Shown here piece after piece: positions 14,558 through 38,353 of a DNA stretch of 64,000 bases. Within the stretch, counting starts at the first letter, position 1; the number at the start of each line of letters is the position of its first letter. Position numbers and translations under genes: made by a program. Source of the DNA: an uncultured Bacilli bacterium (GTDB lineage Bacteria; Bacillota_I; Bacilli_A; RFN20; CAG-288); the NCBI GenBank assembly GCA_944371605.1, contig CALVXU010000009.1:56866-120865 (forward strand), read 5' to 3'. The notes beneath the pieces are model-generated. The model was given only the letters and a program-made list of their open reading frames with translations. It was not told the origin of the DNA and did not search any database.

Positions 14558-14563
14558 TAAAAA

Positions 14564-19567: not shown

Positions 19568-21502
19568 TTATTTTTTCTTCTTTTCCCAACTCATACTGTT
19601 ACCGCTAGTAACGATATAAGCAGGGTCTTTTTCAGCGACTTTTTGAATCGTCATCTCTTCATGATAATCAGCAGAAACAACTTTGATATGATTAGCACCA
19701 TCATGTAAGTCAAGCTTAAATTTGAAGATTTTATCTCCCTTCAAAGTAGCGACTTTCTTATCATCATGATAGAGAGTGACCTCCTTCAAAGTGGAATAAA
19801 CTTTAATCTCAGTTCTCTTTTCATGACGATTGATGTATCTAGTAGAGCAGAGATGCAAGAATGGTTCATCACTCCAATACGCTTTATAAAGATAGAAAGC
19901 ATCTTTCTTAATCTTACGATCAAAAGTGACTAAACCTTTATGATTCTTTCCAGGATCACCGCCTTGATCACGGCCATCAGATCCGAAATCGAACATATTC
20001 CAAACATGAGTCGCCCATAAATATGGATGTTTCTTAAAGCATTCTAAGAGATGTTCATGATAAATGGCTTGATATTCTTCGGTATTATCAAAACGTTTAG
20101 GTTTAGGTGAATGCAAATTAGGCATACCTTCAGCACCATATTCTGAATAGCCTAAGCATCTGTTCGGATAGAGCAAATGGAAGAAAGAAATCCATAAACC
20201 ATTGAGGAAGAAGAATGGTACATACCATCCTAAATAAAGGTTCCAAGAGACCACATCAGTGATATGAGCAGTCTTATTAAAAGGTGTAGCAACAGCATAG
20301 CATGCTAAAGTTGTGAGTCTAGAATGATCCATTTGATGTATCAAATCATTTAATTGATGATTCAAAGCTAACATCTCTTTCTTATGTTTAGGAACCATAG
20401 TGATCTCATTAGAAACACCCCAAACAACAATTGAGGGATGATTATATTGTTGATAAACTAATTCCTTCATTTGAGAGATGGCATTTTCATCACCATTGAC
20501 TAAATGTTGAGAAATATAAGGGATTTCAGCCCAAACAATCATGCCATATTTATCACATAAATCATAGAAGTAATCATCATGTTGATAATGAGCTAAACGG
20601 ATGGTGTTAGCACCTATTTCACGAATCATATCCATATCTTCATCGTGATCCTCTTTAGAGAGAGCGTTACCTTTATGAAGTCTATCTTGATGTCTAGACA
20701 CACCATGTAAAGGATATGATTTACCATTTAAGAAAAAGCCTTTTTTAGGATCGATAGAGAAAGTTCTCACACCAAAATTGGTGCTGATTTCATCTAAAAC
20801 AGTGCCATCTTCAGACAATAGTTTAGCGACTGCCTTATAAAGATAAGGATCCTTTAATCCGTTCCATAAATGAACTTTCGAGATAGTTAATTCTTTATCA
20901 TTTTCACCTTCGATAACTGTCTCACCCTTATCATCTAAAATGCTGATAACAACTTTTTTCTCGCTCTTAGTATAGGCAGTGACTGTGACCAAGGCATCTT
21001 CGCCATTCACTTTGGTATCAACTTTGATTCCTTTAGCGCCAAAGAAGTCTAAATCGAAATGCTCTTTATTTACACGAATCAAATTGACATCTCTATAAAT
21101 ACCACCATAAAAAGTAAAATCAGCTTTTTGTGGATATACATAATCATTGACACTATTATCAACTAAAACTTTTAAAATATTTTCCTCACCGATTTTAAAA
21201 GCATCAGTCAAATCGCAACGAAAAGTAGAATAGCCGCCATCATGTTTTCCGACTAGAGTTCCATTCAAATAAACTTCCGCAGAAGAATTGACTCCCTTAA
21301 ACTCCGCATACAAAACTTCATCATCTGCTAACTCAGGGCAAGTGAATTTATGTTGATAAACAGCTTGACCACGATAATAATCACCGCCTCCATCTTGACC
21401 ATCTTCATTGTTCCAAGTATGAGGTAAATCAATATGGAACAGTTCTTTCGTTTTCGGATCCTCAAATGTCCAATCACGATTGATGTTAGTTATTGTTCTC
21501 AT
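19568..21502 (-). CDS. GH2 glycoside hydrolase, likely cytoplasmic beta-glucuronidase
   Basis: LHGVSRHQD, IRLAHYQH, WGVSNEI acid/base, SEYGAEG nucleophile, KNHKG (NxKG); start at 21502 behind AAGGAG; no signal peptide. Confidence 0.88.
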   Translation of the reverse strand: MRTITNINRDWTFEDPKTKELFHIDLPHTWNNEDGQDGGGDYYRGQAVYQHKFTCPELADDEVLYAEFKGVNSSAEVYLNGTLVGKHDGGYSTFRCDLTDAFKIGEENILKVLVDNSVNDYVYPQKADFTFYGGIYRDVNLIRVNKEHFDLDFFGAKGIKVDTKVNGEDALVTVTAYTKSEKKVVISILDDKGETVIEGENDKELTISKVHLWNGLKDPYLYKAVAKLLSEDGTVLDEISTNFGVRTFSIDPKKGFFLNGKSYPLHGVSRHQDRLHKGNALSKEDHDEDMDMIREIGANTIRLAHYQHDDYFYDLCDKYGMIVWAEIPYISQHLVNGDENAISQMKELVYQQYNHPSIVVWGVSNEITMVPKHKKEMLALNHQLNDLIHQMDHSRLTTLACYAVATPFNKTAHITDVVSWNLYLGWYVPFFFLNGLWISFFHLLYPNRCLGYSEYGAEGMPNLHSPKPKRFDNTEEYQAIYHEHLLECFKKHPYLWATHVWNMFDFGSDGRDQGGDPGKNHKGLVTFDRKIKKDAFYLYKAYWSDEPFLHLCSTRYINRHEKRTEIKVYSTLKEVTLYHDDKKVATLKGDKIFKFKLDLHDGANHIKVVSADYHEEMTIQKVAEKDPAYIVTSGNSMSWEKKKK

Positions 21503-21544
21503 GTAGTTGATACTCCTTAATAACATTTTAAGGATATAACGAAA

Positions 21545-21558
21545 TGTAAGCGATTGCA
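21545..21558. promoter_or_regulatory. cre-like (CcpA/LacI) site upstream of GH2
   Basis: TGTAAGCGATTGCA versus TGWNANCGNTNWCA, one mismatch. Confidence 0.55.
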
Positions 21559-21581
21559 ATAAAAGCTTAATTCTTTTGCGT
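21554..21581 (-). promoter_or_regulatory. candidate activator site, GH2 promoter
   Basis: ACGCAA-N16-TTGCAA, 23 nt before TAAAAT. Confidence 0.5.
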
Positions 21582-21584
21582 TTT

Positions 21585-22374
21585 TTATCTATTTTTTAAC
21601 TTATTCTTTTTTGAAAGACCGATAATCTTTCTGTAGTCCCTGTAAAAAGTCGAGTAATTTTCAAAGCCTAATTGTTCAGCTACTAGTGTCTTTTTCATCC
21701 CGTTCATAATCATGCGATGAGCGATAATAATCTTTTTTGAACGCACATATTGCATGATAGGTGTATTCATATATTTTTTGAAACAATTCGATAGATATGA
21801 TTTAGAAAAATAAAAATGCTCACATAAAGATTCCAAAGTGATATTTTCATTGAGATGTTTATCAATATAGTCGATGACTTTTTTGATGATATCGTTCTGC
21901 CTAGTCGTCGTGAAAGACTTCTGTCCTTCTTTGGATAGATAAATCAAAAACTTTATCAACTCCCCTATAAAAAGAGCATATATCTCTTCCTCACTTTTAA
22001 ACTGGCTATAAAAATCATCTAAAGTAGAAAAATCTAAATGATATTTCATCATATCAGAATAAAAAGAAGAGCAGTTCTTGATGAAATCGACTAAAAATCC
22101 AGGCAAAATTTTATCTGGAAATTTTAAAACATATCTCTCATAAGGCTGGCTTAAATTGCAAACAGCAAAATGGAATTTTCCGCTAGGAACAATGATGACA
22201 TCCCCTGGAGATAGCTTACGACTCTCCGATTCAACATGATAATCCACATCACCAGACACAAAAAAAAATGACTTCATTAAAATAATGCATGTGACGTTCA
22301 AAATTTTCGCTAGGTGTCGTGCTGTTATCTAGTTTATGAGCAAAATCAATACTTTTATAATTGAAATTAAACAT
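21585..22374 (-). pseudogene. AraC-family regulator split by a +1 frameshift in a T9 run
   Basis: Cupin N-terminus MFNF...RHMHYFNEVIFF joins VSGDVDYHVE if one T of the run at 22260-22268 is removed (262 aa); C-terminal double HTH intact. Confidence 0.85.
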
Positions 22375-22418
22375 ATATAGTATAATAACAAAGATAGTAT
22401 AAAGAGATTCTGGTTGAA

Positions 22419-22474
22419 TTGCAACCAAAACAAGAAAAAATTGCAATTTAATTGGATAGCATATCATTTATAAT
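22419..22474 (+). promoter_or_regulatory. uxuA promoter with candidate activator site
   Basis: TTGCAA-N16-TTGCAA, then 22 nt, then TATAAT (22469-74); no consensus -35. Confidence 0.6.
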
Positions 22475-22510
22475 GATAGCTAATATCTCTAAATATAGAA
22501 AGGAGAATGT

Positions 22511-23563
22511 ATGAAACTTACGTTTCGCTGGTATGGTGAGACAGACAGCATACCATTAGACTACATCCGTGAAATTCCTGGAATCACTGGTGTTGTCACC
22601 GCTCTTTATGATGCTAAACCCGGTCAACTATGGAAAGAAGAATCATTAAAGAGACAAAAAGAACTATGTGCCGCTAAAGGATTAGAGATGGAAGTCATCG
22701 AATCCATCCCTGTTTCTGAAGACATCAAATTAGGCAAACCTAATCGTGATGAATTAATAGCTAATTACGCAAAAAATATCGAATTAGTCGCCAAATATGG
22801 TGTTAAATGCGTATGTTATAATTTCATGCCTGTTTTCGATTGGCTAAGAACAACTATGCATTATGTCAATCCAGATGGTTCTAATTCTCTCGCTTATATC
22901 TATGAAGACTTCTTAAAAGTCGACCCTAAACACTTGCATCTACCTGGTTGGGATGAGAGCTATACCGAAGATGAATTGCAAGCTTTGCTAGCAGAATACA
23001 AAAATATTTCTCATCAACAATTGTTTGAAAATCTCGTTTATTTCTTAGAAAGAATCATCCCTGTTTGTGAAAGATGTGATGTTAATATGGCTATCCATCC
23101 AGATGATCCGCCGTGGGATGTCTTCTCACTTCCTCGCATCATCTCTAATGAAGAAGATTTAGATAAACTCTTCAAAGCTGTACCTAGCACGCGTAATGGT
23201 CTGACTCTCTGCACAGGTTCCTTCGGAGCTTCTAGAAATAATGACTTAGTCCATATGGCTGCTAAATATGCTAAAGAAGGACGTATCCACTTCGCACATT
23301 TAAGAAATGTCAAGTACTTAGGTGATCATGATTCATTTGTCGAAGCTGGTCATCTCAGTAAGATGGGCTCCTTAAATATTGCTAAAATCGTTGAAGCTTT
23401 AGTTGAAAACGGATTTGATGGTTATGTCAGACCAGATCACGGAAGAAATATCTTCGGTGAAGATGCTAAACCTGGATACGGATTATATGATCGTGCTTTA
23501 GGAGCATGTTATATCAATGGTTTATTTGAAATGATCGAATATAAAAAAGGAGAAAATAAATAA
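22511..23563 (+). CDS. uxuA: mannonate dehydratase
   Basis: TFRWYG, VIESIPVSEDIK, CYNFMPVFDW, AIHPDDPP, RPDHGR, PGYGLYDRALG. Confidence 0.97.
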   Translation: MKLTFRWYGETDSIPLDYIREIPGITGVVTALYDAKPGQLWKEESLKRQKELCAAKGLEMEVIESIPVSEDIKLGKPNRDELIANYAKNIELVAKYGVKCVCYNFMPVFDWLRTTMHYVNPDGSNSLAYIYEDFLKVDPKHLHLPGWDESYTEDELQALLAEYKNISHQQLFENLVYFLERIIPVCERCDVNMAIHPDDPPWDVFSLPRIISNEEDLDKLFKAVPSTRNGLTLCTGSFGASRNNDLVHMAAKYAKEGRIHFAHLRNVKYLGDHDSFVEAGHLSKMGSLNIAKIVEALVENGFDGYVRPDHGRNIFGEDAKPGYGLYDRALGACYINGLFEMIEYKKGENK

Positions 23564-24423
23564 TGAAGTTTGAAGATTTACCTATCGGTGTTAAACTCAC
23601 TGACAAAGTTGTCGCTATCACTGGTGCTGGCGGTGTTATCTGCGGCGCTTTGAGCAAAGCTATCGCTGCTGCCGGTGCCAAGGTTGCTGTTCTTGATTTA
23701 AAGCTTGAATCTGCGATGAAAGTCGTCGAAGAGATTCGTGCAGATGGCGGAATCGCTTATGGCTATGCTGCTAATGTTTTAGAGTTAGAGAGCTTAAAGA
23801 AAGCCCATGATGATATCAATAAAGATTTAGGCAAAGTTGATATCCTCATCAATGGTGCTGGCGGTAATAATCCTCGTGCTAATACTGATAAAGAGTATTA
23901 TGAAGTCGGAGATATCGATGATCCGGAATTAAAAACCTTCTTCAACCTTGATTCAAGCGGTGTCTCTTTCGTTTTCAATTTAAATTTCTTAGGTACACTT
24001 TTGCCTAGCCAAGTCTTCGCCAAAGATATGTTAGGAAGAGAAGGCTGCTCTATCCTGAACATTTCTTCGATGAACGCTTTCACTCCTTTAACCAAAATCC
24101 CGGCATATTCTGGTGCTAAAGCTGCCGTCAGTAACTTTACTAAATGGTTAGCTGTTCACTTTTCTAAAGTCAATATCCGTGTCAACGCTATCGCACCTGG
24201 ATTCTTAGCCACCGCTCAAAACAAGAGCTTGTTATTCAATCCAGATGGTACTCCAACAGCTCGTACTGGCAAGATTATCAACGCTACACCTATGGGCAGA
24301 TTCGGTGAACCAGATGAACTCATCGGTGCTACACTCTTCTTGATTTCTGACAAAGCTAGTTCCTTCATCACCGGTGTCGTTCTACCTATCGATGGTGGCT
24401 TCTCTAGCTACTCTGGAGTTTAA
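23563..24423 (+). CDS. uxuB: SDR-family D-mannonate oxidoreductase (fructuronate reductase)
   Basis: ITGAGG, NGAGGN, NISSM, YSGAK, IAPGF; between uxuA and uxaC. Confidence 0.85.
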   Translation: MKFEDLPIGVKLTDKVVAITGAGGVICGALSKAIAAAGAKVAVLDLKLESAMKVVEEIRADGGIAYGYAANVLELESLKKAHDDINKDLGKVDILINGAGGNNPRANTDKEYYEVGDIDDPELKTFFNLDSSGVSFVFNLNFLGTLLPSQVFAKDMLGREGCSILNISSMNAFTPLTKIPAYSGAKAAVSNFTKWLAVHFSKVNIRVNAIAPGFLATAQNKSLLFNPDGTPTARTGKIINATPMGRFGEPDELIGATLFLISDKASSFITGVVLPIDGGFSSYSGV

Positions 24424-24431
24424 TCAATAAA

Positions 24432-25853
24432 ATGAAAAGCTTTAATGATAAAGACTTCATGCTCCAAAATGAAGTCGGACAAAAACTTTATCATGAAGTG
24501 GCTGAATCTCTTCCGATTTTTGATTTCCACTGTCATCTTCCTATCGAAGAGATTTATTCTGATAGAACCTATGATTCCATCACCGATTTATGGCTAGTAG
24601 AAAAGAAAAATGGCAAAGCGTTCGGTGACCATTATAAATGGCGCTTGATGCGTGCAAATGGTGTTGATGAAGCTTACATCACCGGTGATAAAGATAAAAA
24701 AGAAAAATTTGTAAAATGGGCAGATACTTTGCAAAACGCTTTCTTAAATCCTCTCTATCATTGGTCACATTTAGAGCTGAAGCAATACTTCGATATCGAT
24801 GAGCCTTTGACTAGTGACAACGCTGAAAAAATCTACGATTTATTAAATGAAAAACTAAAATCTCTTTCAGTTAGAAAGCTCTTAGTAAAAGCGAATGTTC
24901 ACACCTTATACACCACTGATGATCCTCTTTCTGATTTGCATTATCATCAATTATTAAGACAAGATAAGTCTTTCAAAGTAGTCGTCAATCCTGCCTTTAG
25001 AGCAGATAATTTCATCAAGATTTATGCTCCTAACTTCTCAGAAGTCATCACAGCCTTAGGAAAAGTCACTAATAAAGAGATCACAAGTATCAAAGACTTA
25101 GAAGATGCTTTAGATGAAAGATTAGCTTATTTTGCTGAAAATGGTTGTCTTGCTTTCGATGTTTCATTCGAAGACTTCCTCTATCAAAAAGCTGATATCG
25201 ATGAAGTTGATCATATCTTCAAAAATGCTTTGAACCATGAAACATTGACCAAAAGCGATTTAGCTAAATATTATGCTGAAATCTTGCACTTCTTCGGAAA
25301 AGCATGTGCCAAATATCACTTCGTCATGCAGTATCATCTCAAAGCTTTGAGAAATCTCAATTCCCGTGCCTTTGAAACTTTAGGAGCCGACTCTGGTTAT
25401 GACGCTATCTCTGACACAGACCTCATCCATGATTTGACTCATTGCTTAGACGATCTAGAAAAAGAAAACTCTTTATATAAGACTATCATCTATACACTTG
25501 ACCCATCAGATTATGAACCATTGTTAGCGATGTGTGGTTCTTTCCAAAAGGCGCCTTATAGAGGCAAGATTCAATTCGGTGCAGCTTGGTGGTTCAACGA
25601 TCACCGCGATGGCATGGAAAAACAAATGAGAGCTTTAGCAAATTATAGTTTATTGCCTCACTTTGTCGGTATGTTAACTGATTCTAGAAGCTTCTTGAGT
25701 TATGCTAGACACGATTACTTTAGGCGTCTATTATGTAATTTGATCGGCAAGACTGTTGAAGATGGTGAATATCCTTTAAATGAGGAATTCTTAAAGAAAA
25801 TGGTCAAGAAGATCAGTTTTGATAACGCTGTCGAATTCTTTACAAAAGATTAA
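24432..25853 (+). CDS. uxaC: uronate isomerase
   Basis: DFHCHL, DHYKWRLMRANG, NPLYHWSHLEL, GAAWWFND, GMLTDSRSFLSY. Confidence 0.97.
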   Translation: MKSFNDKDFMLQNEVGQKLYHEVAESLPIFDFHCHLPIEEIYSDRTYDSITDLWLVEKKNGKAFGDHYKWRLMRANGVDEAYITGDKDKKEKFVKWADTLQNAFLNPLYHWSHLELKQYFDIDEPLTSDNAEKIYDLLNEKLKSLSVRKLLVKANVHTLYTTDDPLSDLHYHQLLRQDKSFKVVVNPAFRADNFIKIYAPNFSEVITALGKVTNKEITSIKDLEDALDERLAYFAENGCLAFDVSFEDFLYQKADIDEVDHIFKNALNHETLTKSDLAKYYAEILHFFGKACAKYHFVMQYHLKALRNLNSRAFETLGADSGYDAISDTDLIHDLTHCLDDLEKENSLYKTIIYTLDPSDYEPLLAMCGSFQKAPYRGKIQFGAAWWFNDHRDGMEKQMRALANYSLLPHFVGMLTDSRSFLSYARHDYFRRLLCNLIGKTVEDGEYPLNEEFLKKMVKKISFDNAVEFFTKD

Positions 25854-25873
25854 TATAGAAGGTTACTAAATAT

Positions 25874-26476
25874 ATGGATATCATTGAAAAAATTCACGAA
25901 TTAAAAGTTGTTCCTGTTGTCGTTTTAAATTCTGTCGATGAAGTTGAAGATAAAATCGGTGGTTTAGTCGAAGGAAAATTACCTGTTGCTGAAATCACTT
26001 TCCGCACTGCTTGTGCTGCTGAAGCTATCAAAAAATCAATCGAATTATATCCCGATGCCCTCATCGGTGCTGGCACTGTCATCAACGCTAAACAATGTGA
26101 AGCAGCCATCAAAGCCGGCGCTAAATTCATCGTTTCTCCAGGTTTTGCTGATGATGTCGATTTGGTTTGTAAAGCTCATGACATTCCTTATCTTCCTGGT
26201 ATTGCTACCCCTACTGAAATCATTCACGCTATCAGTTTAGGTCATAAGATCATCAAGTTCTTCCCAGCTAGCATCTATGGCGGATTAAAAGCTATCAAGA
26301 GTTTAGCTGCTGTTTTCCCGGATGTAAAATTCTTGCCGACTGGTGGTATCAATGAGGATACTTATCTCGAGTACTTAGCATTCGATAAAATCATCGCTGT
26401 CGGTGGTTCCTGGATGACTAAAGGTAGCCATGAAGAAATCGTCGCTAAATGCTTGCAGATTCATGAAGGTAAATAA
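25874..26476 (+). CDS. eda: KDPG/KHG aldolase
   Basis: AEITFRT, IGAGTV, FIVSPG, KFFPA, PTGGI. Confidence 0.95.
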   Translation: MDIIEKIHELKVVPVVVLNSVDEVEDKIGGLVEGKLPVAEITFRTACAAEAIKKSIELYPDALIGAGTVINAKQCEAAIKAGAKFIVSPGFADDVDLVCKAHDIPYLPGIATPTEIIHAISLGHKIIKFFPASIYGGLKAIKSLAAVFPDVKFLPTGGINEDTYLEYLAFDKIIAVGGSWMTKGSHEEIVAKCLQIHEGK

Positions 26477-26504
26477 TATTTTTTAAGAAAAAGAGGTATA
26501 TATT

Positions 26505-27530
26505 ATGGCTAAAATTGTCACTATGGGTGAAATCATGCTTCGTCTTTCCACTCATGGATTCTTACGTTTTGTTCAATCTGATAGTTTCGACGCTTGCTAC
26601 GGTGGTGGTGAAGCTAACGTCGCGTTATCTTTATCCAACTATGGTCATAAAACTTATTTTGTCACTAAGCTTCCTAAGAATGATATCGGTCAAAGCGCCA
26701 TCAACTCTTTACGCGAGTTTGGTGTCAATACCGACTATATCGTCAGAGGTGGTGACAGAATCGGTATCTATTATTTAGAGACTGGTGATGCTATGCGTCC
26801 TTCAAAAGTCATCTATGATCGTTCTAATTCTGCTATCGCTTTAGCTGAAGCTGATGAATTCGATTTCGATAAAATCTTTGAAGGCAAAGATTGGTTCCAT
26901 TTCACTGGCATCACTCCAGCTATCTCTGAGAAAGCTGAAAAATTAACTGTCTTAGCTTGCCAAGCTGCTAAAAAGCATGGCTTGACAGTTTCTTGCGATT
27001 TAAACTTCCGTAAAAAATTGTGGACTAGTGAAAAAGCTATCCAAGTCATGACATCTTTAATGCCATATGTCGATGTCTTGATCGGTAATGAAGAAGATTG
27101 TGAGAAATGCTTAGGCTTTAAAGCTGAGAAGAGCGATGTCACTAAAGGTCAACTCAATCTTAGCGGCTATCAAGATGTGTTTATGAAACTCAAAGAAAAA
27201 TTTGGTTTCAAATATATGGCTACTTCTCTAAGAGAATCTTACTCTGCTTCTGATAACGGTTGGTCAGCTCTCATCTATGATGGAAAAGAATTCTATCACT
27301 CTCGTGAGTACCAAATCCGTCTTGTCGATCGCGTCGGTGGAGGCGATTCTTTCGCAGGTGGTCTCATCCATGGTTTGTTAGCCTACAATGGCGACGAAAA
27401 GAAAGCCTTGGAATTTGCGGTTGCAGCTTCTGCTTTAAAACAAACTATCCCTGGCGATGTCAATCACGTCAGCACTGAAGAAGTTGAAACATTGATGAAT
27501 GGTGATGCTTCTGGAAGAGTCCAAAGATAA
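26505..27530 (+). CDS. kdgK: 2-keto-3-deoxygluconate kinase (PfkB family)
   Basis: GEIMLRLS, GGGEANVA, DLNFRKKLW, DRVGGGDSFAGG. Confidence 0.95.
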   Translation: MAKIVTMGEIMLRLSTHGFLRFVQSDSFDACYGGGEANVALSLSNYGHKTYFVTKLPKNDIGQSAINSLREFGVNTDYIVRGGDRIGIYYLETGDAMRPSKVIYDRSNSAIALAEADEFDFDKIFEGKDWFHFTGITPAISEKAEKLTVLACQAAKKHGLTVSCDLNFRKKLWTSEKAIQVMTSLMPYVDVLIGNEEDCEKCLGFKAEKSDVTKGQLNLSGYQDVFMKLKEKFGFKYMATSLRESYSASDNGWSALIYDGKEFYHSREYQIRLVDRVGGGDSFAGGLIHGLLAYNGDEKKALEFAVAASALKQTIPGDVNHVSTEEVETLMNGDASGRVQR

Positions 27531-27561
27531 TAGATTCTTCAGTTCCGATACTCTCCTTTTT

Positions 27562-27600
27562 AAACCGGATGGCTTTTCTCCAGTTATCCGGTTTTTTCTT
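27562..27600. terminator. bidirectional terminator between kdgK and lipoprotein gene
   Basis: AAACCGGAT-N15-ATCCGGTTT followed by T-tract. Confidence 0.75.
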
Positions 27601-27659
27601 TATAAAAAAACTATAACTTTTCAGTTATAGTTCATAATTACGATCAAAAGATAAATTGG

Positions 27660-30600: not shown

Positions 30601-30956
30601 GAGCCGCAATCAGCACAATAAGAATATTCTTTAGTGCCATCGGTCAAACATGTGGCTGGAGTTCCTGGATGAGTAGTCAAAGAATTCGAATCGTGATTTT
30701 TAGGATCTAATGGCAATAAAACTTCTTCATCAGTCACAACTTGACCATCGATCATCTTCTTGCGGCAATACGGACATTCCTCATAGGCTTTATGTCCTTG
30801 TGTCTTGCAAGTAGAAGCGACAGCCTCTACTGGATAAAAGACACATTCATGCACAGCGACAGAGGATGATGAATCTTGAGTACAGCTAGAAAGAATAGGT
30901 GACATAAACATCAATGACAAAAGAGTTATGCCAACAGCTTTTTTCTTATTTTTCAT
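27660..30956 (-). CDS. large multidomain lipoprotein (Cys/His repeats, 2 Big_2-like Ig domains, 2 tandem beta-rich domains)
   Basis: Start 30956 MKNKKK with lipobox ILSSC; TVTWSS/TLTWSS Ig repeats; duplicated EKHY...DFFDPANW...ISSLAIDP domains. Confidence 0.85.
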   Translation of the reverse strand: MKNKKKAVGITLLSLMFMSPILSSCTQDSSSSVAVHECVFYPVEAVASTCKTQGHKAYEECPYCRKKMIDGQVVTDEEVLLPLDPKNHDSNSLTTHPGTPATCLTDGTKEYSYCADCGSYVIDGENYTEENYQEALVIPKETAEHELVHHDEVASTCIPGKKAYDQCSVCHKYFIDGVEVQESDLIIPASGEHNFNTYGVCENGCGTYRYDSQVFDSTNLVPLTATSGDGYCDTGDDKIAMIESIHDTKMTFHTQRSSKDGCQVTYRDGEAVDITLSKGTANQCSFTRFVVGDGQTAYTGQFYLTFEITIDRDMLVDRLGAMIADYDGNVKTDTLGEYDQSNLLGADSGNKGSVEKNPNRILKGNTTYRFIYKMETTNTSPSPDMVDKQEQMIQIFIGGGDATYTLSNLHVITLPEAEKTGKVTSSLLYFGETDLVENEKDIKVTDLTLNKTYLAMQVGDEETLVATVLPDIATDKTVTWSSDHPEIVDVDDNGKLTAKTIGTAKITATCGGLTATCDVEVLDMVIPVTGVELDKETLELTAGDDASQLVATITPDNASNKTLTWSSSAPEVASVSDTGLVTPLTEGQTTITVKTNDGLFEDTCVVTVSAPTEKHYYTYLEEDFFDPANWDANGEGARDDSIIDSDFKLSFTSSTASRFDLFYGPNHANFAENSNNIDGTSKDQQAIFEPIYNQTYSFDMDVETDGEVNLMIFGTSGANGPTNTSSASLYLHIKSDGSMSLDQSAPMSNNDFKDHFTCADTGFKLNETNKLSFKVNRVDINTLTLQVFVNDKQVKFEGDDWTQGSRGTYSVDENGTYTSNYVKGSGYGPRFGVYPSDDTTFKISSLAIDPEPEQITEPDPEPVEKHYNLYNGKDFFDPANWYGTTQDQIARDDSIIDEDHNLSFTNATPSRTDFFYFKDDGCHFGDKDADNKWNGYTDYYGRTYTFSLGIESTGAFEMTAIANNSWVTPSTTGGFGFGYHFEDNKITLTCHHNGHNYTFTANTDAFKFNQVNQVSLKVTRVDADTLTLQLLVNDAVVEFDKSGDYSGSSYSFTMSDDFVLSFDKYLANNGYGQRLGIFPDAGSVVTISSLAIDPAPAN

Positions 30957-30967
30957 TTTAGCACCTC

Positions 30968-33900
30968 TCATTTTCTCAAACTCAAGGATTCCTGAATCTG
31001 TTTTGCACAATCATAGATGTAGATAGCACCGAACATGACCGTAGACCAAACAACTAAAGTGAATAAAACACGAGTGACAACTGGGACTAATTTTTCCCAA
31101 AGTGGAGTGATAGTAGTGAAGGAAGAATCACCAGTGATACCATTCATAGCATTAGAATTGACAACTGTGTAAAGAACATTCTTGACACAATCTCTCATAG
31201 CCCAAGCTAATTTTCCATAGCCAGTTTCGTAGTCAACAAATTGAGCACTATTTCCATCATAGTCATTACCGCCAGACCAACTGCCGATATTACCATCGGG
31301 TAAATCGTTACCATATAAGACACCTTGGATAGGAGACATATAACGACGAGAAGAGTTGTAGTCAGAAATAGCATAGCTAGTCATACCGAATTCAGCTCTT
31401 AAAACAGTGTTCAAGAAGCCTTGGCCACCAGTCCAAACAGCGCCGAGACGATTCATACCAGTCATGACGCCTAACATCGGCATATGAGTTCTCTCACCAT
31501 TCTCATCGAAAGCTAGTTCTCTATCTAATTCGATTGCGACTTCGAGAGCACGGCAATAAATCTCACGAATAGATTGTTCATTTGCCCAAACATTAAGACC
31601 AGCTCTGTGAGTCTCTTGGTCGTTTAAAACAGCGTGTTTAGCTAAAACAAATACGCCCATGTCATGTAAGCCAGCAGCTTCATAACCAGCAGCAACACCA
31701 GTCAAGAATCCATCTTCTGAATAATACTCGAAAGTTCTGCCACAATAAGCACCTCTATGAATGTTAACACCTAAACCATAGATGCCGTTATAGCCAGCCC
31801 AAATAGCTTCTTCACCAGTTTGCTTACCTATTCTTCTGATCAAATCAACGTTATAGGTAGCAGCAACAATACCATTATTAGCAAAAATAGTCGGTTTTGT
31901 ATTCACACCATCATTTCTTAATTCAGCAAATCCACGGAAAGCATTTTGACTTGGAATCGCACCATCATTACGAGAGTGAACAGGTGAGATAGCACCATTT
32001 TGTTGAGAAGTCATAGGAGCAGCGATGGAATCGATACCACGAGTATAACGTAAAGCATCTTGCAAAATATAGCAGGTCTCATCCCAAGAGATGCGATCGA
32101 GCAAAGTATCCCAGTCAGGGTCATCGAAAGATTTTCCGCGTAAATAGATGAGTTTGATTTCATCAAACATATCATCGCCTTCATAGAAGCCGATTTCATC
32201 ATAAGTCGGATAAGCGATATTATCTTGTTCAACAGCTGGCACCTTTTGTGCTTCAGCCAATTCAGAGCTAGCAGTCAATTTGATGACTTTACCATAAGTG
32301 CCAGTCCAATTGCTTCTAGTCATATAAGGTTGCGACTCTTCACTTTCAGAGAAAAGGCCAGCTTTCTGATAGTCAGTGTTATCGAATTGGTTAGTGATAG
32401 AGGAGACACCATAGTTAGCTTCTTCACCAGGATATCGAGCTTCAAAGTTTTCATTTTGTTGTTCGATATAGTCATTGGTAGAGTACTTAGTAGCACTATA
32501 AGCGATATGTTTACCCCAAACTAAAGACTTATCACCATTGCCACGACCATCATTAGTAGTGATGCTCTCTAAATCGACATCAACACCATTATCGGCTTTG
32601 TATTGTAAGAAATTATTTTCAGCATCATGCGCATCTTTAGCGACTGTGAATAAATATTCATCATCTTCATCGCTAGAACCAATGACATAAGTCTTCTCAC
32701 CATTAGCATCATAAGCAGCTAAATACTTGCCTTTGATCTCAATGGTAGCAGGAACAGTCTCATGAGCTTTGACATCCACTTTAGTGAAACCAGCTAATTC
32801 AACAGCTGATTTTTCAACACCGTTTTCAATATCCTTAGCTGTGTATGGTTTTTGGATATATGCTTGAACAACTTCTTTACCGTCGATATCTGAATTATTG
32901 GTGACATCAACTGTTAAGGTATAAGTATCCTCTTCAGTATTTTCTGTAACTTTGAAATTAGAATAAGAATAATCAGAGTAGCTTAAGCCATAACCGAAAG
33001 GATAAGATACAGCTGCTTGATAATCAAAACTACCAGCATTAGCACGATTAGTCAAAACGTCTTCATAACGAGTTTCAGTATATTTATATCCGTTATAAAT
33101 ACCTTCTTGGTAAGCGACATAGAATTTATTATTATATTCTTTTCTAGTAGCAAAATAATCCTTTAAAACACTAGAATTCCCATATTCAAAGGAACCGAAA
33201 TTATAGTAAACAGGATTATATTTGCTATCAGCAAAGAAAGTATCAGCAGTTCTGCCGGAGAAATTATATTCACCAGTTAATAACTTGCCAATCGCGTTAG
33301 CACCATTAGTGCCGATGGTTCCAACCCATAAAGCAGCATCAATACCATATTCTTCTTGATCAACAAAAGCGCTTTGGAAAGGACTTGCGCAATTCATAAT
33401 GACAATAATCTTGTCCAATTTGCCCTCATCCTTCATTCTCTTCATATTTTGAAGAACATCTTTTTCATTATCGGTTAAAGCTAAAGCATCGCCGACAGAA
33501 TTATTCGGATCACCATTATGATCACGGCTGACAATGGTTCTAGTCTGTCCATCATCCATAGTCGTATCCATATATAAGTCAATAGCTTCACCTGAGTTTC
33601 TAGCTAAAACCATGATACCAGCTTTAGCATCATTTTCTTTATCAGATGGAAGAGCAGACCAAGGGGCATCTTCGACAACTAATTGGACTTCTTGATCCTC
33701 ATAACCGATGAAGTGGCCGTTAGTAGAATTCAGATAGGAAAGACCGTTGTTTTTGTACCATTCATTTAAATTTTTATTGACACTCAAACCAGCACTGGTC
33801 AAACCTTGTTCCAAAGTGACAATATCAGCAAAAGGATCTTGGTCACCATTGACTTTGAAACTTGAAGATCCCATACCAGTGACAACCGAATGATAGGAAG

Positions 33901-34222
33901 CAGCACCGTAAAGATTAACTGTATCTTCTTTAGCTAAAGGTAATGCATCATTATCATTCTTTAACAAAACAGCACCTTCTTTTAAAGTCTCATCAATGAT
34001 ATCTTTACTGGCCTGTTTAACTTCGTCCATCGTCTCGAATTCAGTGTCAAAATAAATGTTTCCATCTGAGCCGCTGCCAGTCGATGTTTGAATCTTAAAG
34101 GTGGTATTGATGATACCAGCATAGTCTAATAACATCGGGCTAGCTGTGACAGCTAAGGCAAAAAGAACAAATGTGACATGAAAACTGATTTTAGATATTC
34201 CTAAAGCTGTTTTTCTTTTCAT
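30968..34222 (-). CDS. membrane-anchored GH3 glycosidase, permuted domain order
   Basis: GAVLLKNDNDALPL first, YQEGIYNGYKY, YPFGYGLSY, Fn3-like, then GLGVNIHRG, EYYSEDG, KHAVLNDQET, AISD; hydrophobic segments at both termini. Confidence 0.92.
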   Translation of the reverse strand: MKRKTALGISKISFHVTFVLFALAVTASPMLLDYAGIINTTFKIQTSTGSGSDGNIYFDTEFETMDEVKQASKDIIDETLKEGAVLLKNDNDALPLAKEDTVNLYGAASYHSVVTGMGSSSFKVNGDQDPFADIVTLEQGLTSAGLSVNKNLNEWYKNNGLSYLNSTNGHFIGYEDQEVQLVVEDAPWSALPSDKENDAKAGIMVLARNSGEAIDLYMDTTMDDGQTRTIVSRDHNGDPNNSVGDALALTDNEKDVLQNMKRMKDEGKLDKIIVIMNCASPFQSAFVDQEEYGIDAALWVGTIGTNGANAIGKLLTGEYNFSGRTADTFFADSKYNPVYYNFGSFEYGNSSVLKDYFATRKEYNNKFYVAYQEGIYNGYKYTETRYEDVLTNRANAGSFDYQAAVSYPFGYGLSYSDYSYSNFKVTENTEEDTYTLTVDVTNNSDIDGKEVVQAYIQKPYTAKDIENGVEKSAVELAGFTKVDVKAHETVPATIEIKGKYLAAYDANGEKTYVIGSSDEDDEYLFTVAKDAHDAENNFLQYKADNGVDVDLESITTNDGRGNGDKSLVWGKHIAYSATKYSTNDYIEQQNENFEARYPGEEANYGVSSITNQFDNTDYQKAGLFSESEESQPYMTRSNWTGTYGKVIKLTASSELAEAQKVPAVEQDNIAYPTYDEIGFYEGDDMFDEIKLIYLRGKSFDDPDWDTLLDRISWDETCYILQDALRYTRGIDSIAAPMTSQQNGAISPVHSRNDGAIPSQNAFRGFAELRNDGVNTKPTIFANNGIVAATYNVDLIRRIGKQTGEEAIWAGYNGIYGLGVNIHRGAYCGRTFEYYSEDGFLTGVAAGYEAAGLHDMGVFVLAKHAVLNDQETHRAGLNVWANEQSIREIYCRALEVAIELDRELAFDENGERTHMPMLGVMTGMNRLGAVWTGGQGFLNTVLRAEFGMTSYAISDYNSSRRYMSPIQGVLYGNDLPDGNIGSWSGGNDYDGNSAQFVDYETGYGKLAWAMRDCVKNVLYTVVNSNAMNGITGDSSFTTITPLWEKLVPVVTRVLFTLVVWSTVMFGAIYIYDCAKQIQESLSLRK

Positions 34223-34686
34223 TTGGCATTTCCTCCAGTAGATAATTCAGTCTTTTTGGTCATATGATTCTTCTCTTCCTTTGATTTTCTAAACGGAGGA
34301 ATATACATAGCGATAGATGAAAAAATGAAGGAAAGCACGAATAATAAAACTGTGACCCAAACAAATGTGTCTAAATTAAAGAACGCTTCAAATGAGAAGC
34401 CGCTGAAGAAAGCGGTTGAAAGATAGTCGATTAAACCTTCAGCCTTCGCAAATGCGCATACACATAAGAAATCACAGCACATCAAAGAGATAGGAGCTAA
34501 GACAGCTGTTTTCTTAAATAACATCAAAACACAGAAAAGACCAACGCCTAAAATAGCGAATAAGCAAACTTGTAAGTTGAATAAGTCAGTAGGAACATAG
34601 GTGTAAATCCAAGCTTGGGCAACTGTTGTCATAACAGCTAAATACCCGAATGCTCTATTCACCCAATTGATTTTTTTCTCCCTCAT
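34219..34686 (-). CDS. small 4-TM membrane protein
   Basis: 155 aa, four hydrophobic segments, overlaps GH3 start; similar to 48063-48497. Confidence 0.8.
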   Translation of the reverse strand: MREKKINWVNRAFGYLAVMTTVAQAWIYTYVPTDLFNLQVCLFAILGVGLFCVLMLFKKTAVLAPISLMCCDFLCVCAFAKAEGLIDYLSTAFFSGFSFEAFFNLDTFVWVTVLLFVLSFIFSSIAMYIPPFRKSKEEKNHMTKKTELSTGGNAK

Positions 34687-34688
34687 AA

Positions 34689-35936
34689 TTATTCCTCCTC
34701 ATTGAGGACGATAGCACTGCTATCTCCGAGAATGTTAAGATTTTCATCAAGAGTAGAAAGAGAAACAGCATCTAAATTACAAGGTGAACCAGTTCCAGCG
34801 TTTGGACCACTTGTAAAAATCAAATGATTGACACCTTTTTGTAATTCGATTTGAACACTGGGCATAGTATAAGGGGTATAGTAACCACTACCAGCACCAG
34901 GGACTTCAATGTCATCTAAAACATCAATCTTAGAGCCGTTAAGAGACACTTTGAAATAATTAGAGAAGACATCTCCTTGCGGACGTTGACAAACTAACAT
35001 GGTTAAATTGACAGTGGCTGCTTGAGAAGTGACGATTTCAAAATCAACTTTCATATTATTAGTATTAAAGCTTCGTAAACAAGCACCACCACTACAATCC
35101 CTACCATCAATAGTTTCACCTTCTGAAGATAAGAATGGTTTATTATTATCTGGCATTGTAGCTAATTGTTCTCTAGTCAATAACACATCGTCTTTATAAA
35201 CGTCTTGATTTTCAGCTTCGAGGAGAACAGTGTTCGATAACTTGCTTTCATCAATATAGCCATTGACAACAGAGGTGTCTAACTCAAGAGTTAAGTCTTG
35301 ATATCTCTTGCTAGCTAAACAAATAGTTCCCATGTTAGGAGTCATAGTGATATCTTCAGCATTTAAATAGAATTCTGAATCGACATAATAATAATTTTTT
35401 ACATCTTCAGTTTCTTCAGTAGATGTATTTTCATCGGAAGCAGTCACTTCATCAGTATTTCCTTCATTTGAAGTATCTGCAGAGGCAGCTTCTTTTTCTA
35501 AAGCAAGATCATTTTCTTTTTCATAAATCGGTTTGATAGAAGCATTATCTTCAATATCTTCTTTAGCAGTTAAGACTCCATCTTCACTATAGTACTTACG
35601 AATGACGAAGCCATATTCATCGGCAGGCATATCTGCATTATTGACGATATTCTCTAACGATGGATCTCTAGCAACCACTCTGACCTGATTCTTTTCTTTA
35701 TCAAAAGAAAAAGTATCACCAGTGAAATATGATTGCTGATAATTTGGTGAATCTAAACGGATTAGTCCCTTCGTGCCGTACTCTACCGTTGGTTCTTCAA
35801 TCAATTCTCCGCCATATAAAATAGCAACAGCGACAGAAATGACAAAAAATAGCGGTAAAAAGACAGCCAAAACAACTTTCAAAGCCTTAAAACGTGATTT
35901 TTTAGGTTCAGGCTTGATTGCAGCTTGTTCGTCCAT
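34689..35936 (-). CDS. single-pass membrane protein with C-terminal CBM6/CBM35-like domain
   Basis: N-terminal TM; VLLEAE...SGGACL...LQKGVNHLIF...NLDAV pattern; acidic linker. Confidence 0.65.
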   Translation of the reverse strand: MDEQAAIKPEPKKSRFKALKVVLAVFLPLFFVISVAVAILYGGELIEEPTVEYGTKGLIRLDSPNYQQSYFTGDTFSFDKEKNQVRVVARDPSLENIVNNADMPADEYGFVIRKYYSEDGVLTAKEDIEDNASIKPIYEKENDLALEKEAASADTSNEGNTDEVTASDENTSTEETEDVKNYYYVDSEFYLNAEDITMTPNMGTICLASKRYQDLTLELDTSVVNGYIDESKLSNTVLLEAENQDVYKDDVLLTREQLATMPDNNKPFLSSEGETIDGRDCSGGACLRSFNTNNMKVDFEIVTSQAATVNLTMLVCQRPQGDVFSNYFKVSLNGSKIDVLDDIEVPGAGSGYYTPYTMPSVQIELQKGVNHLIFTSGPNAGTGSPCNLDAVSLSTLDENLNILGDSSAIVLNEEE

Positions 35937-36059
35937 AACCCCCTCCTAGTTAAGTTGAATGACTTTAAATACAAAAATGTATAAAATCACCTACTTGTAT
36001 ATTTTAAATTTTTATGAAAAGCCTTACAACAATTAAAATGGCAAATTTCGTTGCAAATA

Positions 36060-36087
36060 TTGCAAAAGCAATTATTTTTCATTGCAT
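36060..36087 (-). promoter_or_regulatory. candidate activator site, surface operon promoter
   Basis: ATGCAA-N16-TTGCAA, 22 nt before TTTAAT. Confidence 0.45.
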
Positions 36088-36340
36088 TTTCACCATTTGA
36101 CATAAATAATCCGTGAATTGTCACTGTTGATTATCATCTTTTTTATCATCAATGACATTAACTCTTTCTTTAAAAAGTTTGAATGAGGAAGAACATTTTA
36201 AAAAAGCATGTTGCAAAAAAAGTTTCTTTTTTAACATTTTATGAAAAACAATTTGCTATTTAATCCTTGTAAGCGCTATTCTATTGTAGAAGTGCATAGC
36301 TTACTTTTGTTATGTACCGAAAATTGAAAGGAAAACATCT

Positions 36341-38353
36341 ATGGAAACAACAGACGCAAAAAAAAGTTTCTTCGAAACTCCTATGCTCTCTACAAAGATT
36401 AAGTCTGCCAATGTAAAACTCGTTCCAGAAGCTGCATTTGGTTACTTAGTCGGTCCTGCATTCGCTCTGATTGCAAATAGTGTTGTCAACACCTATTTAA
36501 GTCAGTATTGGCGCAATGTCTTAGGTTTGGGTGAATGGGCTTATACATTCACATGGTTACTTCCTTTAATCTCAGCAGTCATCATCGTTGTCGGCAATTT
36601 ATTAGTCGGAAGATTATTTGAAAGAAAACCGACCATCGCTGGCAAAGCTCGTCCGTTTATTCTCATCGGTATGCCATTGATGGCAATCGCTCTTTTAATC
36701 CTCTTCCTAGTTCCATTCCCTAAAGGTGCTACCGCTCAAAATCCTAACTGGTTAACTCTAGTATTTATCGCTGTCGGTTACAACCTTTATTATGCTGTAG
36801 CTTATCCATTCTATTACACTTCACACTCCGCTTTAGTCAATCTTTCCACCCGTGATAGATCTAAGAGATCATTGCTAGCTACTGCTTCCAATGCTGCTCA
36901 AATCGTTGCGTCTGGAGCCGCTGGTATGGTTGCACCATTCTTCATTGATGCTTTAGGATTGCTTCCTGCTGGTGAAGTTACTGGTCAGCTAGCTGATGAA
37001 GCCGCCAGAAGTGAAGCTAACAGCAAGTGGGTCATCTTGATGGTCATCTTGATCGTCATCCAAGTGATCGGCTGCTTATTAGAGTACTATTTCACTAGAG
37101 AAAGAATCACTGAAGAAAAATTCAAATTAAAAATTGCAAATTCTGCTGACAATCTCGCATTAGAAGCTAAAAAAGTTCCTATGAGCCAACAGGTTAAAAT
37201 TTGTGCTCGTGACAAATTCTGGTGGATGGTAATCATCTTCTACTTCCTCTATCAATTAGGTGGTATGTTAAAGAACAATGATGCAACTTGGTTCTCTCAA
37301 GCTTTCTTAGGTGCTAACCAAACCAAATTAGCTGGTACTATCAATACAGTTGGTGCTATTCCTACTGCTTTAGGTATGTTAGTCATTTGGCCATTAGCTA
37401 GAAAATTCGGCAAGGCCAATTGTATTAAAGTAGGTGGATTCTTAGCCTTTTTGATGGGATGCTTAGGATTCTTAGTTTTACCTTTAAGCGACAACACCTC
37501 TGCCGTCTGGGGCATTTCTATCACTGCCTTCTGCTTAAAATCTATCGGCACCGTCCCTGCTATGTATATTTCTATGGCTTTATTATCTGACGTTTTGGAA
37601 CACCAAGAAGCTATTTATGGTATTAGAACTGATGGTTTCTCAATGGCTGTTTATGGTTCAATCATGATTGCTATGCCTGGTGTCGCAAATGCTATCATCA
37701 ACCTTATTAATAATAATCCTAACATTTCTTCTAATGTTGAGACTTGGCAAATCGCCAACACCTTTATCTACTTCGGTGGTGAATCTATCTGCTACTTATT
37801 GATCGGTCTCATCTTCTTATTTATGAATGTAGAAAGATTCTCGAAGCTTGATAAGACGGCTATTACAAACGATCAAAAAGAAGTAGCCATTAGAAAAGGT
37901 GCTGAATGGGTCGACCCCGAAATTAGACTTGAACAAGAGCAAGCTGAAGCTGAAGAGCAAGTCCATCAAGAAGAAATTGAAAACTTACGTAAACGTGTTG
38001 AGAAAAATAATGCTAAATTCCACGAGCTCACAGCTGCAGGTAAATCAACCGAATTAAAAGAACTCGTTTTCGAAGAAGAATTAGAGAAATACGAAACCGA
38101 ACGTGCGAATAAGAAAGCTGAAGCTGACAGAAAGAAAGCTGAAGCTGATAAAAAGAGAGAAGAACAACGTCTTGCTAAAGAAAAAGAGCATGAACAATGG
38201 TTAGCTTCTTTAAGTGATGACCAGCGAAATGCTTATGAAAAGAAGATGAAGGAAAAAGAAGAAAGAAAAGCTGCGTTCGATGCTGAATCCGAACGAGAAT
38301 TCTTAGAATTAAGAGATTTAGCTGCTGAAGAAAGAGCTGCTAATTTGGCTTAA
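36341..38353 (+). CDS. GPH-family MFS sugar/glycoside transporter with long charged C-terminal tail
   Basis: ~12 TM segments, GKARPFILIG, RSLLAT, TRERITE, GIRTDGF; E/K/R/A-rich tail. Confidence 0.88.
   Translation: METTDAKKSFFETPMLSTKIKSANVKLVPEAAFGYLVGPAFALIANSVVNTYLSQYWRNVLGLGEWAYTFTWLLPLISAVIIVVGNLLVGRLFERKPTIAGKARPFILIGMPLMAIALLILFLVPFPKGATAQNPNWLTLVFIAVGYNLYYAVAYPFYYTSHSALVNLSTRDRSKRSLLATASNAAQIVASGAAGMVAPFFIDALGLLPAGEVTGQLADEAARSEANSKWVILMVILIVIQVIGCLLEYYFTRERITEEKFKLKIANSADNLALEAKKVPMSQQVKICARDKFWWMVIIFYFLYQLGGMLKNNDATWFSQAFLGANQTKLAGTINTVGAIPTALGMLVIWPLARKFGKANCIKVGGFLAFLMGCLGFLVLPLSDNTSAVWGISITAFCLKSIGTVPAMYISMALLSDVLEHQEAIYGIRTDGFSMAVYGSIMIAMPGVANAIINLINNNPNISSNVETWQIANTFIYFGGESICYLLIGLIFLFMNVERFSKLDKTAITNDQKEVAIRKGAEWVDPEIRLEQEQAEAEEQVHQEEIENLRKRVEKNNAKFHELTAAGKSTELKELVFEEELEKYETERANKKAEADRKKAEADKKREEQRLAKEKEHEQWLASLSDDQRNAYEKKMKEKEERKAAFDAESEREFLELRDLAAEERAANLA

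Follow-up and report, generated by a model that had tools for sequence, protein, structure and literature searches.

Do membrane-anchored surface proteins encoded beside a full set of genes for glucuronate catabolism belong to the same glucuronide-utilization system, or do they simply happen to lie next to it? This question is raised by a locus of an uncultured Bacilli bacterium (CAG-288; assembly GCA_944371605.1, contig CALVXU010000009.1, positions 56,866-120,865 of the forward strand). The window, by which we mean the whole stretch analyzed, is 64,000 nt long, and the region studied covers window positions 19568-38353. The source genome, 1.43 Mb in 33 contigs, is labeled G000; the genomes and loci compared with it carry G-numbered and L-numbered labels, respectively. 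The region encodes a family GH2 glycoside hydrolase, an AraC-family regulator, the uxuA-uxuB-uxaC-eda-kdgK operon, a convergent four-gene operon and a divergent transporter of the major facilitator superfamily (MFS). The convergent operon, hereafter the cassette, encodes a protein anchored by a transmembrane (TM) helix and resembling the carbohydrate-binding modules of family CBM35 (the anchor), a small protein with four TM segments (the 4-TM protein), a family GH3 glycoside hydrolase (GH3a) and a surface lipoprotein. Scans of the open reading frames (ORFs) of the window against Pfam and NCBIfam found all of these genes at or near the places where the initial annotation had put them.

We estimate a probability of roughly 0.62 that the region forms one AraC-controlled glucuronide regulon, in which a known cytoplasmic core is combined with a surface front end. 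In such a regulon, an AraC-type activator, presumably sensing glucuronate or a glucuronide, would turn on four or more promoters, and CcpA-type catabolite-responsive element (cre) boxes would add catabolite repression. All four cassette products would be located on the outer face of the cell membrane, where they may form a physical complex. The likely role of the anchor and the lipoprotein would be to capture, at the membrane surface, a glycan or glycoside that contains glucuronate, and the tethered GH3a, with its 4-TM partner, would probably trim the bound glycan to a glucuronide small enough for the symporter. The GPH-family symporter would then bring the glucuronide into the cell, and the cytoplasmic GH2 would free glucuronate, which UxaC, UxuB, UxuA, KdgK and Eda would convert through fructuronate, mannonate, 2-keto-3-deoxygluconate (KDG) and its 6-phosphate (KDPG) to pyruvate and glyceraldehyde-3-phosphate. 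The release of glucuronate and its breakdown by UxaC-UxuB-UxuA-KdgK-Eda are established pathway knowledge.

An operator shared by the catabolic genes and the surface cassette

Part of the evidence for this reading is a shared operator. In G000, two TTGCAA hexamers separated by 16 nt (TTGCAA-N16-TTGCAA) are located between the divergent uxuA and araC genes (22419..22446); the boxes have a 22-bp period and are self-complementary, so that one site can serve both divergent promoters. Related sites precede the GH2 gene (ACGCAA-N16-TTGCAA with one mismatch, 21554..21581, minus strand), where the cre box TGCAATCGCTTACA (21545-21558) overlaps the second box of the operator, and the cassette (ATGCAA-N16-TTGCAA, 36060..36087, minus strand), where further TTGCAA and TTGCCA boxes follow with the 22-bp period. 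The MFS promoter (36253..36279, plus strand) contains a single TTGCTA box and the cre box TGTAAGCGCTAT. In the uxuA/araC intergenic regions of G000, G005, G014 and G015 the operator lies ~22 nt upstream of the -10 box, and many cassette promoters have the proximal box directly against a TTGACA -35 hexamer, the placement of a class II activator site. Since no other regulator gene accompanies these genes consistently, AraC is the best candidate binder, and it most likely binds the TTGCAA operator as an activator.

The operator was frequently observed at the same promoters in relatives. The uxuA/araC site is kept in G005, G014, G015, L048, L052, G061, G062 and G064. In G005 and G015, which belong to the same genus as G000, the orthologous GH2 sites are exact TTGCAA-N16-TTGCAA copies, and the same architecture together with a cre box stands before the MFS and anchor genes; a full two-box operator is found at the MFS promoter of both genomes and of L048 and L052. 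A scan of the 1.4-Mb G005 genome with WTGCAA-N15-17-TTGCWA returned four sites only, before the MFS gene, the cassette, uxuA/araC and GH2, and the control returned 0. The four N16 sites of G015 are located at the same four promoters.

Comparisons with more distant genomes showed the same association. We found cassette-type GH3 genes in 20 GTDB species representatives, and 19/19 exact N16 sites there are upstream of genes of the system; six loci without an exact site (L056, L057, L059, L060, L063 and L064) have N15 or one-mismatch versions. The operator is also ahead of the anchor gene in all five contexts reached through distant anchor homologues, and in L048 and L052 it precedes the MFS and uxuA genes as well. 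Eight further genomes were scanned as well. In G061, G062, G064 and G067 the operator stands, on separate contigs, before uxuA/araC, eda-kdgK-uxaC, GH2 and the anchor cassette (control 0-1), and its other targets there include lipoproteins, one of them of the ApbE type, an esterase and extra 4-TM plus GH3 pairs. The initial annotation had made its proposal stand or fall with co-regulation of the surface genes and the uxu genes. The cassette has the same operator as uxuA/araC and GH2, and this operator precedes the cassette in 19/19 other species with readable upstream sequence, also where the genes are on unlinked contigs.

Gene-context analysis further shows that the cassette is linked to the catabolic genes in several lineages. 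In G005 and G015, GH2, araC and the divergent uxuA-uxuB-uxaC-eda-kdgK operon are followed by anchor, 4-TM, GH3 and lipoprotein genes on the same strand, and the cassette GH3 is 75% identical to GH3a. The cassette adjoins kdgK in three species of the genus, although it is inverted in G000 relative to G005 and G015. The MFS ortholog of these two genomes (69-71% identical) is located on another contig, with neighbors matching no protein of the system. Outside the genus, L048, L052 and L055 each contain a single AraC-MFS-GH2-anchor-4TM-GH3-lipoprotein array. This array is divergent from uxuA-uxuB-uxaC-eda-kdgK in the case of two distant anchor homologs (37-38% identical), and three others are in stand-alone cassettes. 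UxaC is present in 17/18 other cassette-bearing genomes, a raw count with no matched background set. The co-conservation of surface and uxu genes that had been predicted was thus found, both as kdgK adjacency in three species and as the distant fused array.

Additional operator sites were observed. In the Clostridia-labeled G061 (L089-L098) the operator occurs 12 times (control 0), and its extra targets are an ApbE flavin-transferase lipoprotein, a BD-FAE esterase lipoprotein, a Na+/H+ exchanger, large lipoproteins and two 4-TM plus GH3 pairs. In G000, TTGCAA-N15-TTGCAA lies ~62 bp upstream of an operon encoding a GH88 lipoprotein and a lipoprotein with the orphan C-terminal domain of the cassette lipoprotein (G000:C6:9838-13699), and likewise ~62 bp upstream of a frameshifted gene for a GH29 fucosidase lipoprotein with F5/8C, CBM6/35 and Calx-beta domains (G000:C2:63248-66294). 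These GH88 and GH29 loci may be further members of the regulon; we did not count them in it, as their spacing differs from N16.

Homopolymers of G7-G10 occur in the spacer between the -35 and -10 boxes, after the proximal TTGCAA, in the cassette promoters of L049 (8156-8215), L056, L057, L059, L060, L064 and L070. Such poly-G spacers suggest slipped-strand phase variation of the surface cassette.

Proteins of the cytoplasmic core and the cassette

The GH2 gene (19568..21502, minus strand) most likely starts at the ATG at 21502 and encodes 644 aa; the longer open frame, to 21559, overlaps the operator. The protein contains the Pfam domains Glyco_hydro_2_N, Glyco_hydro_2 and Glyco_hydro_2_C and is ~57% identical to solved gut beta-glucuronidases (GUS) that bind flavin mononucleotide (FMN). 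Comparison with the PDB by phmmer matched it to 6MVG (730 bits, E 2.6e-218) and 6MVH (725 bits), which are FMN-binding GUS structures (PMC9377255), and also to 7KGZ and 6MVF. The catalytic motifs NEITM and SEYG are aligned with those of 6MVG and 6MVH, and the N-x-K carboxylate motif, noted as NxKG in the initial annotation, is present as GKNHKGLV (GMNHKGLV in 6MVG and GQNHKGLV in 6MVH). No signal peptide was found on the protein. On the basis of the similarity to 6MVG and 6MVH, the catalytic and NHKG motifs and the lack of a signal peptide, GH2 is predicted to be a cytoplasmic beta-glucuronidase of the FMN-binding GUS class. It is shorter than the solved FMN-binding enzymes (734-780 aa), without their ~100-residue C-terminal domain, for which a role in gating the active site has been suggested (PMC9377255).

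The AraC-family gene (21585..22374, minus strand; ORF called at 21585-22301) encodes a C-terminal double helix-turn-helix (Pfam HTH_AraC and HTH_18) and an N-terminal cupin (Cupin_2), annotated as AraC_binding in conspecific copies. The catabolic operon (22511..27530, plus strand) encodes UxuA (22511-23563; Pfam UxuA, 448 bits), the SDR-type D-mannonate oxidoreductase UxuB (23563-24423; NCBIfam, 426 bits, cut-off 281), UxaC (24432-25853; Pfam UxaC, 592 bits), Eda (25874-26476; Pfam Aldolase, 208 bits) and the PfkB-type KDG kinase KdgK (26505-27530; Pfam PfkB), and is followed by a terminator at 27562-27594. The initial annotation had also claimed that an ATP-binding cassette (ABC) solute-binding protein, a phosphotransferase system, SusC/D, an alpha-glucuronidase, uxaA and uxaB were absent from the window, and none of these (GH67 for the alpha-glucuronidase) was found among window ORFs of at least 120 aa. 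UxaA was not found in the whole G000 genome either, and the pathway is therefore that of the glucuronate (mannonate) branch only.

The transporter gene (36341..38353, plus strand; 670 aa; Pfam MFS_2, 153 bits) is followed by a terminator at 38377-38404. Its product scores 92 bits against the TIGR00792 gph model (cut-off 231) and 40 bits against the UidB model (cut-off 528), and appears to be a divergent GPH-type carrier. It is the sole GPH carrier in the G000 genome. Its cytoplasmic C-terminal tail of ~170 aa (37840-38353) is highly charged, coiled-coil-like and kept in orthologs.

The first cassette gene (34689..35936, minus strand) encodes the 415-aa anchor, which consists of an N-terminal TM helix, an Ig-like domain, an acidic linker and a C-terminal jelly-roll (~residues 235-400) carrying an EAE...NLD sequence pattern. 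No Pfam family, including CBM_6 and CBM_35, matched it at E <= 0.01. A search found 41 homologs of the anchor. A structure predicted with AlphaFold2 (AF2) has a predicted local distance difference test (pLDDT) value of 83. The top Foldseek matches of the jelly-roll were the CBM35 modules 2W1W, 2W46, 4QAW, 2W47 and 2W87 (TM-score up to 0.79), and against 2W1W, 2W46, 2W47, 2VZP and 4QB1 the match probability was 1.00 with target-normalized TM-scores of 0.69-0.79. The uronate-binding modules 2W47, 2W87, 2VZP and 4QAW are among the fold matches, so that the description of this protein as a CBM-like anchor held at the level of the predicted fold. The domain shares its fold, at TM-scores up to 0.79, with calcium-dependent uronate-binding CBM35 modules (2W47, 2W87, 2VZP and 4QB1); unlike CBM35 modules that are appended to enzymes, it is part of a stand-alone protein on a TM stalk.

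The gene of the 155-aa 4-TM protein (34219..34686, minus strand) is translationally coupled to that of GH3a. No Pfam or NCBIfam family matched the protein, and in all loci examined the gene of an ortholog directly precedes that of the cassette GH3. The last cassette gene (27660..30956, minus strand; open frame to 31010), with its start most likely at 30956, encodes a lipoprotein of 1098 aa. A lipobox and three Cys/His repeats were recognized in it, besides two Big_2 domains, an orphan beta jelly-roll and an orphan beta domain of ~240 aa that occurs twice; precomputed annotation gives it the Pfam accessions PF26182 and PF26918. All orthologs keep the orphan jelly-roll and have one or two copies of the ~240-aa domain; a lipoprotein ortholog lies downstream of GH3 in 16/26 other loci examined. 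An AF2 model of residues 233-882 is all-beta (pLDDT 90.7). In the fold search with this fragment the two Big_2 domains dominated the matches, among which was BT4661, and the two jelly-roll domains received no classification. Neither the PDB nor Pfam gave a match to a profile built from the C-terminal domain that is repeated.

GH3a (30968..34222, minus strand; 1084 aa) has the permuted Pfam order GH3_C (85-379), Fn3-like (450-510) and GH3_N (778-897), with one TM helix at the N-terminal end and another at the C-terminal end. Judging from this layout and from its catalytic residues, it is probably an exo-glycosidase with an extracellular catalytic part. The nucleophile D954 corresponds to D242 of TnBgl3B (the column marked by the D242A mutant chain 2X42) and the acid/base E212 to E458, and both are invariant in the cassette clade. 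In GlyA1, subsite -1 is formed by D532, R597, K630, H631, R641, Y677 and W710 (PMC5104943). The residues R829, K862-H863 and R873 of GH3a are kept from this set, but Y677 is replaced by an invariant M923 and W710 by an invariant Y955. The equivalent of D532 is alignment-dependent, being R763 in phmmer alignments to 8IDZ and 5K6L or N742 in a hidden Markov model (HMM) of paralogs and in MAFFT. Subsite -1 is remodeled, and the specificity of GlyA1 is therefore not transferable to GH3a.

Within residues 736-770 of GH3a, the clade-specific IPSQNAFRGFAELR resembles the GH3 pattern 'IP.....DGPAGLR', with Arg or Lys at the position of the sugar-binding Asp; QQNGA, upstream of IPSQNAFRGFAELR, is an alternative equivalent of the canonical GH3 motif. 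A search with the linker (residues 560-800) found no solved relative.

To better understand the evolution of GH3a, we compared it with its relatives. G000 contains 23 paralogs of the doubly anchored, permuted GH3 (~5% of the genome), on contigs C2, C17, C19, C20 and C28-C33, and two ordinary cytoplasmic GH3s. Most paralog loci also have lipoproteins, often with a small polytopic protein, and 14/23 adjoin a LytTR response regulator and a GHKL kinase, not AraC. In a maximum-likelihood tree of 25 GH3s of G000 and seven cassette GH3s of other genomes, the cassette GH3s form one clade (support 100/100) on a long stem of 0.96, and its tips are short (0.07-0.22). Their identity to GH3a is 63-76%, whereas the anchor proteins are only 37-50% identical. 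The records of the cassette carriers are labeled Firmicutes, Bacilli, 'Mollicutes', Clostridia and Christensenellaceae; the diversity of the carriers and the high GH3 identity suggest that the cassette spread horizontally.

Five of the GH3 paralogs have 1372-2059 aa. Four of these run well past the membrane helix, with a second TM segment following, and the fifth (1372 aa) has its extra length before the C-terminal helix.

Evidence against the regulon and alternative readings

Several observations weigh against a single glucuronide regulon. G014, whose uxu genes are the most similar to those of G000 in the set (77-87% identity), has the locus adhE-GH2-araC-uxu-eda-kdgK-MFS-glgADC-GH3b-4TMb without the cassette, and no anchor homolog was found in its whole genome. 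The cassette occurs in only 3/24 UxaC-bearing species of the genus. Anchor orthologs are present in 3/61 relatives, as compared with 28/61 for UxaC, and the cassette is on this ground an accessory add-on. The MFS promoter shows only one recognizable box in G000 and G014, and TTGCAA pairs are also found at a few unrelated G000 promoters (cadA and fruR). In the G000 assembly araC is frameshifted: a T9 run at 22260-22268 (minus strand) breaks the frame as compared with G014 and G015, whereas the gene is intact with T8 in 10 conspecific assemblies carrying an identical UxuA. Either the T9 arose as an error of assembly, or it marks a strain or phase variant in which the regulon would be silent. In addition, subsite -1 of GH3a differs from that of characterized beta-glucosidases and xylosidases. 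To our knowledge, no GH3 enzyme cleaves glucuronides, and for this reason the link from the GH3 step to glucuronide import is conjectural.

A bolder version of the regulon would treat the four cassette proteins as a fixed, membrane-integral 'utilisome' of monoderm gut bacteria, which feeds the GPH symporter and the FMN-binding glucuronidase and whose GH3 has a basic C6-pocket residue and a new glycone specificity, as an exo-uronidase or an enzyme for glucuronate-substituted sugars. We regard this version as unlikely. If true, it would reveal which glycans, from the diet or the host, are natural substrates of a drug-reactivating glucuronidase class, and would define a widespread, horizontally shared glucuronide-harvesting device under one AraC operator, subject in some species to poly-G phase variation.

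Distinctly unlikely, in our judgment, is the related proposal that the GH3s of the cassette clade are extracellular enzymes, either exo-uronidases or specific for another C6-modified sugar, and free glucuronate or a short uronide at the surface, with GH2 serving other imported glucuronides. The long stem and very short, conserved tips of the clade suggest a new function followed by constraint, which together with the invariant M923 and Y955 in subsite -1 and the operator shared with glucuronate catabolism would fit such an enzyme. R763, which is Lys in one ortholog, would then be the basic residue at the canonical O4/O6-binding Asp, as the phmmer alignments place it, but N742 takes this position, and the R763 segment becomes an insertion, both with MAFFT and with an HMM built from the 21 closest paralogs. 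The importer is moreover a GPH-type glycoside carrier and not an ExuT-type hexuronate carrier, and the regulon already includes a dedicated glucuronidase. That no GH3 uronidase has been described, as far as we know, also counts against the proposal.

The cassette could alternatively be mainly a sensor and signal generator, making a minor contribution to carbon supply, if a polymer-derived glucuronide, once imported, induced AraC. We consider this highly unlikely, since an 8-kb, four-protein apparatus with multivalent binding modules would be costly for a pure sensor and only a presumed product links the cassette to the cytoplasmic AraC. Points that speak for a sensor are the accessory nature of the cassette in an otherwise complete glucuronide system, its own operator-controlled promoter, the presence of the same kind of GH3 and 4-TM pair beside AgrC-like kinases elsewhere, and the poly-G tract in the promoter spacer of several species, which suggests on/off switching; a sensing role is also compatible with nutrient harvesting.

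With 23 such GH3 paralogs in 1.43 Mb, the adjacency of the cassette to the uxu genes proves little alone. Even so, it is very improbable, and already disfavored, that the cassette is a chance neighbor, one of 23 generic GH3 modules, and TTGCAA a general promoter feature or global-regulator site, as the paralogs, the pairs upstream of cadA and fruR-like genes, the absence of the cassette from G014 and its separation from uxu in most species could indicate: the four genomic sites of G005 are all in the system, no N16 site is upstream of other G000 GH3 loci (one N15 match, C28:6503-6529, is at the start of a small 4-TM ORF), the box accompanies the cassette, uxu and GH2 across classes even when they are unlinked, L048 and L052 hold the cassette in one array with AraC, MFS and GH2, and the cassette GH3s are a distinct orthologous clade. 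An initial hypothesis that the cassette is a generic module unrelated to glucuronides was rejected in view of the shared operator and the synteny.

Comparison with known systems and other features of the window

The AraC-controlled glucuronide regulon resembles known systems in its core. Firmicute gut loci described by Gloux & Anba-Mondoloni in 2016 combine H11G11-BG or GUS with a glucuronide transporter, an AraC-family regulator and an esterase (PMC4732671). They share the AraC, GPH-type transporter and GH2 core with the present locus, and an esterase is found in the regulon of one relative here. That account does not mention a GH3, a surface binding protein, an operator or a link to uxu (PMC4732671), whereas here the four-gene surface cassette and the uxu/kdg operon share an operator. 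The gus/uid system of Escherichia coli (UidR-UidA-UidB-UidC) follows the same logic of GPH import, cytoplasmic GH2 GUS and the isomerase pathway to KDPG. The present system differs in its AraC-type rather than TetR/GntR regulator, its GUS of the FMN-binding rather than the Loop-1 class, a transporter distant from UidB, the lack of the outer-membrane UidC and the addition of an extracellular front end.

The order of alpha/beta sandwich, FnIII and (alpha/beta)8 barrel in GH3a is that of GlyA1 and BrGH3A (5K6L-5K6O; PMC5104943, PMC11233000), and the catalytic Asp and Glu are kept. GlyA1 is a soluble beta-glucosidase/xylosidase, in contrast to GH3a with its TM helices at both ends and an obligate 4-TM neighbor, and subsite -1 of GH3a has Met in place of Tyr, Tyr in place of Trp, and Asn or Arg in place of Asp.

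The regulation recalls E. coli AraC at araI1-araI2 and RhaS at rhaBAD, which likewise have a divergent regulator gene, half-sites about two helical turns apart, a proximal half-site abutting the -35 box and catabolite control. Here, however, the hexamers are self-complementary, catabolite control would act through cre boxes and the regulon is dispersed.

Similar co-regulation, for one glycan class, of proteins that bind and cleave glycans at the surface with an importer and enzymes of the cytoplasm is known from Gram-positive polysaccharide utilization loci (PULs), as in Roseburia and Eubacterium, and from the Sus-like PULs that Bacteroidota carry. The multidomain beta-sandwich lipoprotein of the cassette recalls surface glycan-binding proteins of PULs, which in the Sus-like PULs are lipoproteins of the SusE/F type. 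The co-localization of a regulator, a transporter and a glycoside hydrolase, by which Gram-positive PULs are defined, is found here with AraC, GPH/MFS, GH2 and GH3 within 19 kb; the adjacent SusC/SusD pair that defines Sus-like PULs was not found among window ORFs of at least 120 aa. Unlike in these PULs, the window has no SusC/SusD or ABC solute-binding protein, the surface proteins are attached by TM and lipid anchors rather than by sortase or S-layer homology domains, and the parts may be scattered on the chromosome and united only by the operator. A literature search for a published account combining glucuronide use, GH3, CBM35 and AraC found nothing relevant. The system appears to be a variant of the Gram-positive PUL in which known catabolic and regulatory parts share a conserved operator with a surface module that consists of orphan proteins and for which we found no published description.

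The natural substrates and gene partners of FMN-binding glucuronidases are poorly defined. In many uncultured gut lineages, FMN-binding-type glucuronidases are encoded in a conserved regulon with a membrane-tethered surface module, which offers a lead to their physiological substrates; these enzymes of gut Firmicutes have been studied for reactivating drug glucuronides such as mycophenolate (PMC9377255). The defined operator can be used for predicting regulon members in metagenomes, and the GH3 clade with its remodeled active site is a priority for enzymology. The locus may also serve as a compact model of glycan harvest by small-genome, single-membrane bacteria without ABC binding proteins, cellulosomes or Sus-like systems.

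Elsewhere in the window, a second pair of a 4-TM protein (144 aa) and a doubly anchored, permuted GH3 (1024 aa) is located at 44976-48497. It has no TTGCAA operator, its position after glgADC is kept in G014, and it adjoins a JetABC (Wadjet) operon. This operon, JetA-JetB(DUF4194)-JetC at 48712-54409, is Wadjet/Mks-like, and a scan of flanking ORFs revealed no JetD-like domain. The segment at 10000-16000 is AT-rich (GC 0.27-0.29, compared with ~0.36 elsewhere) and encodes proteins of 795 and 266 aa without a Pfam match.

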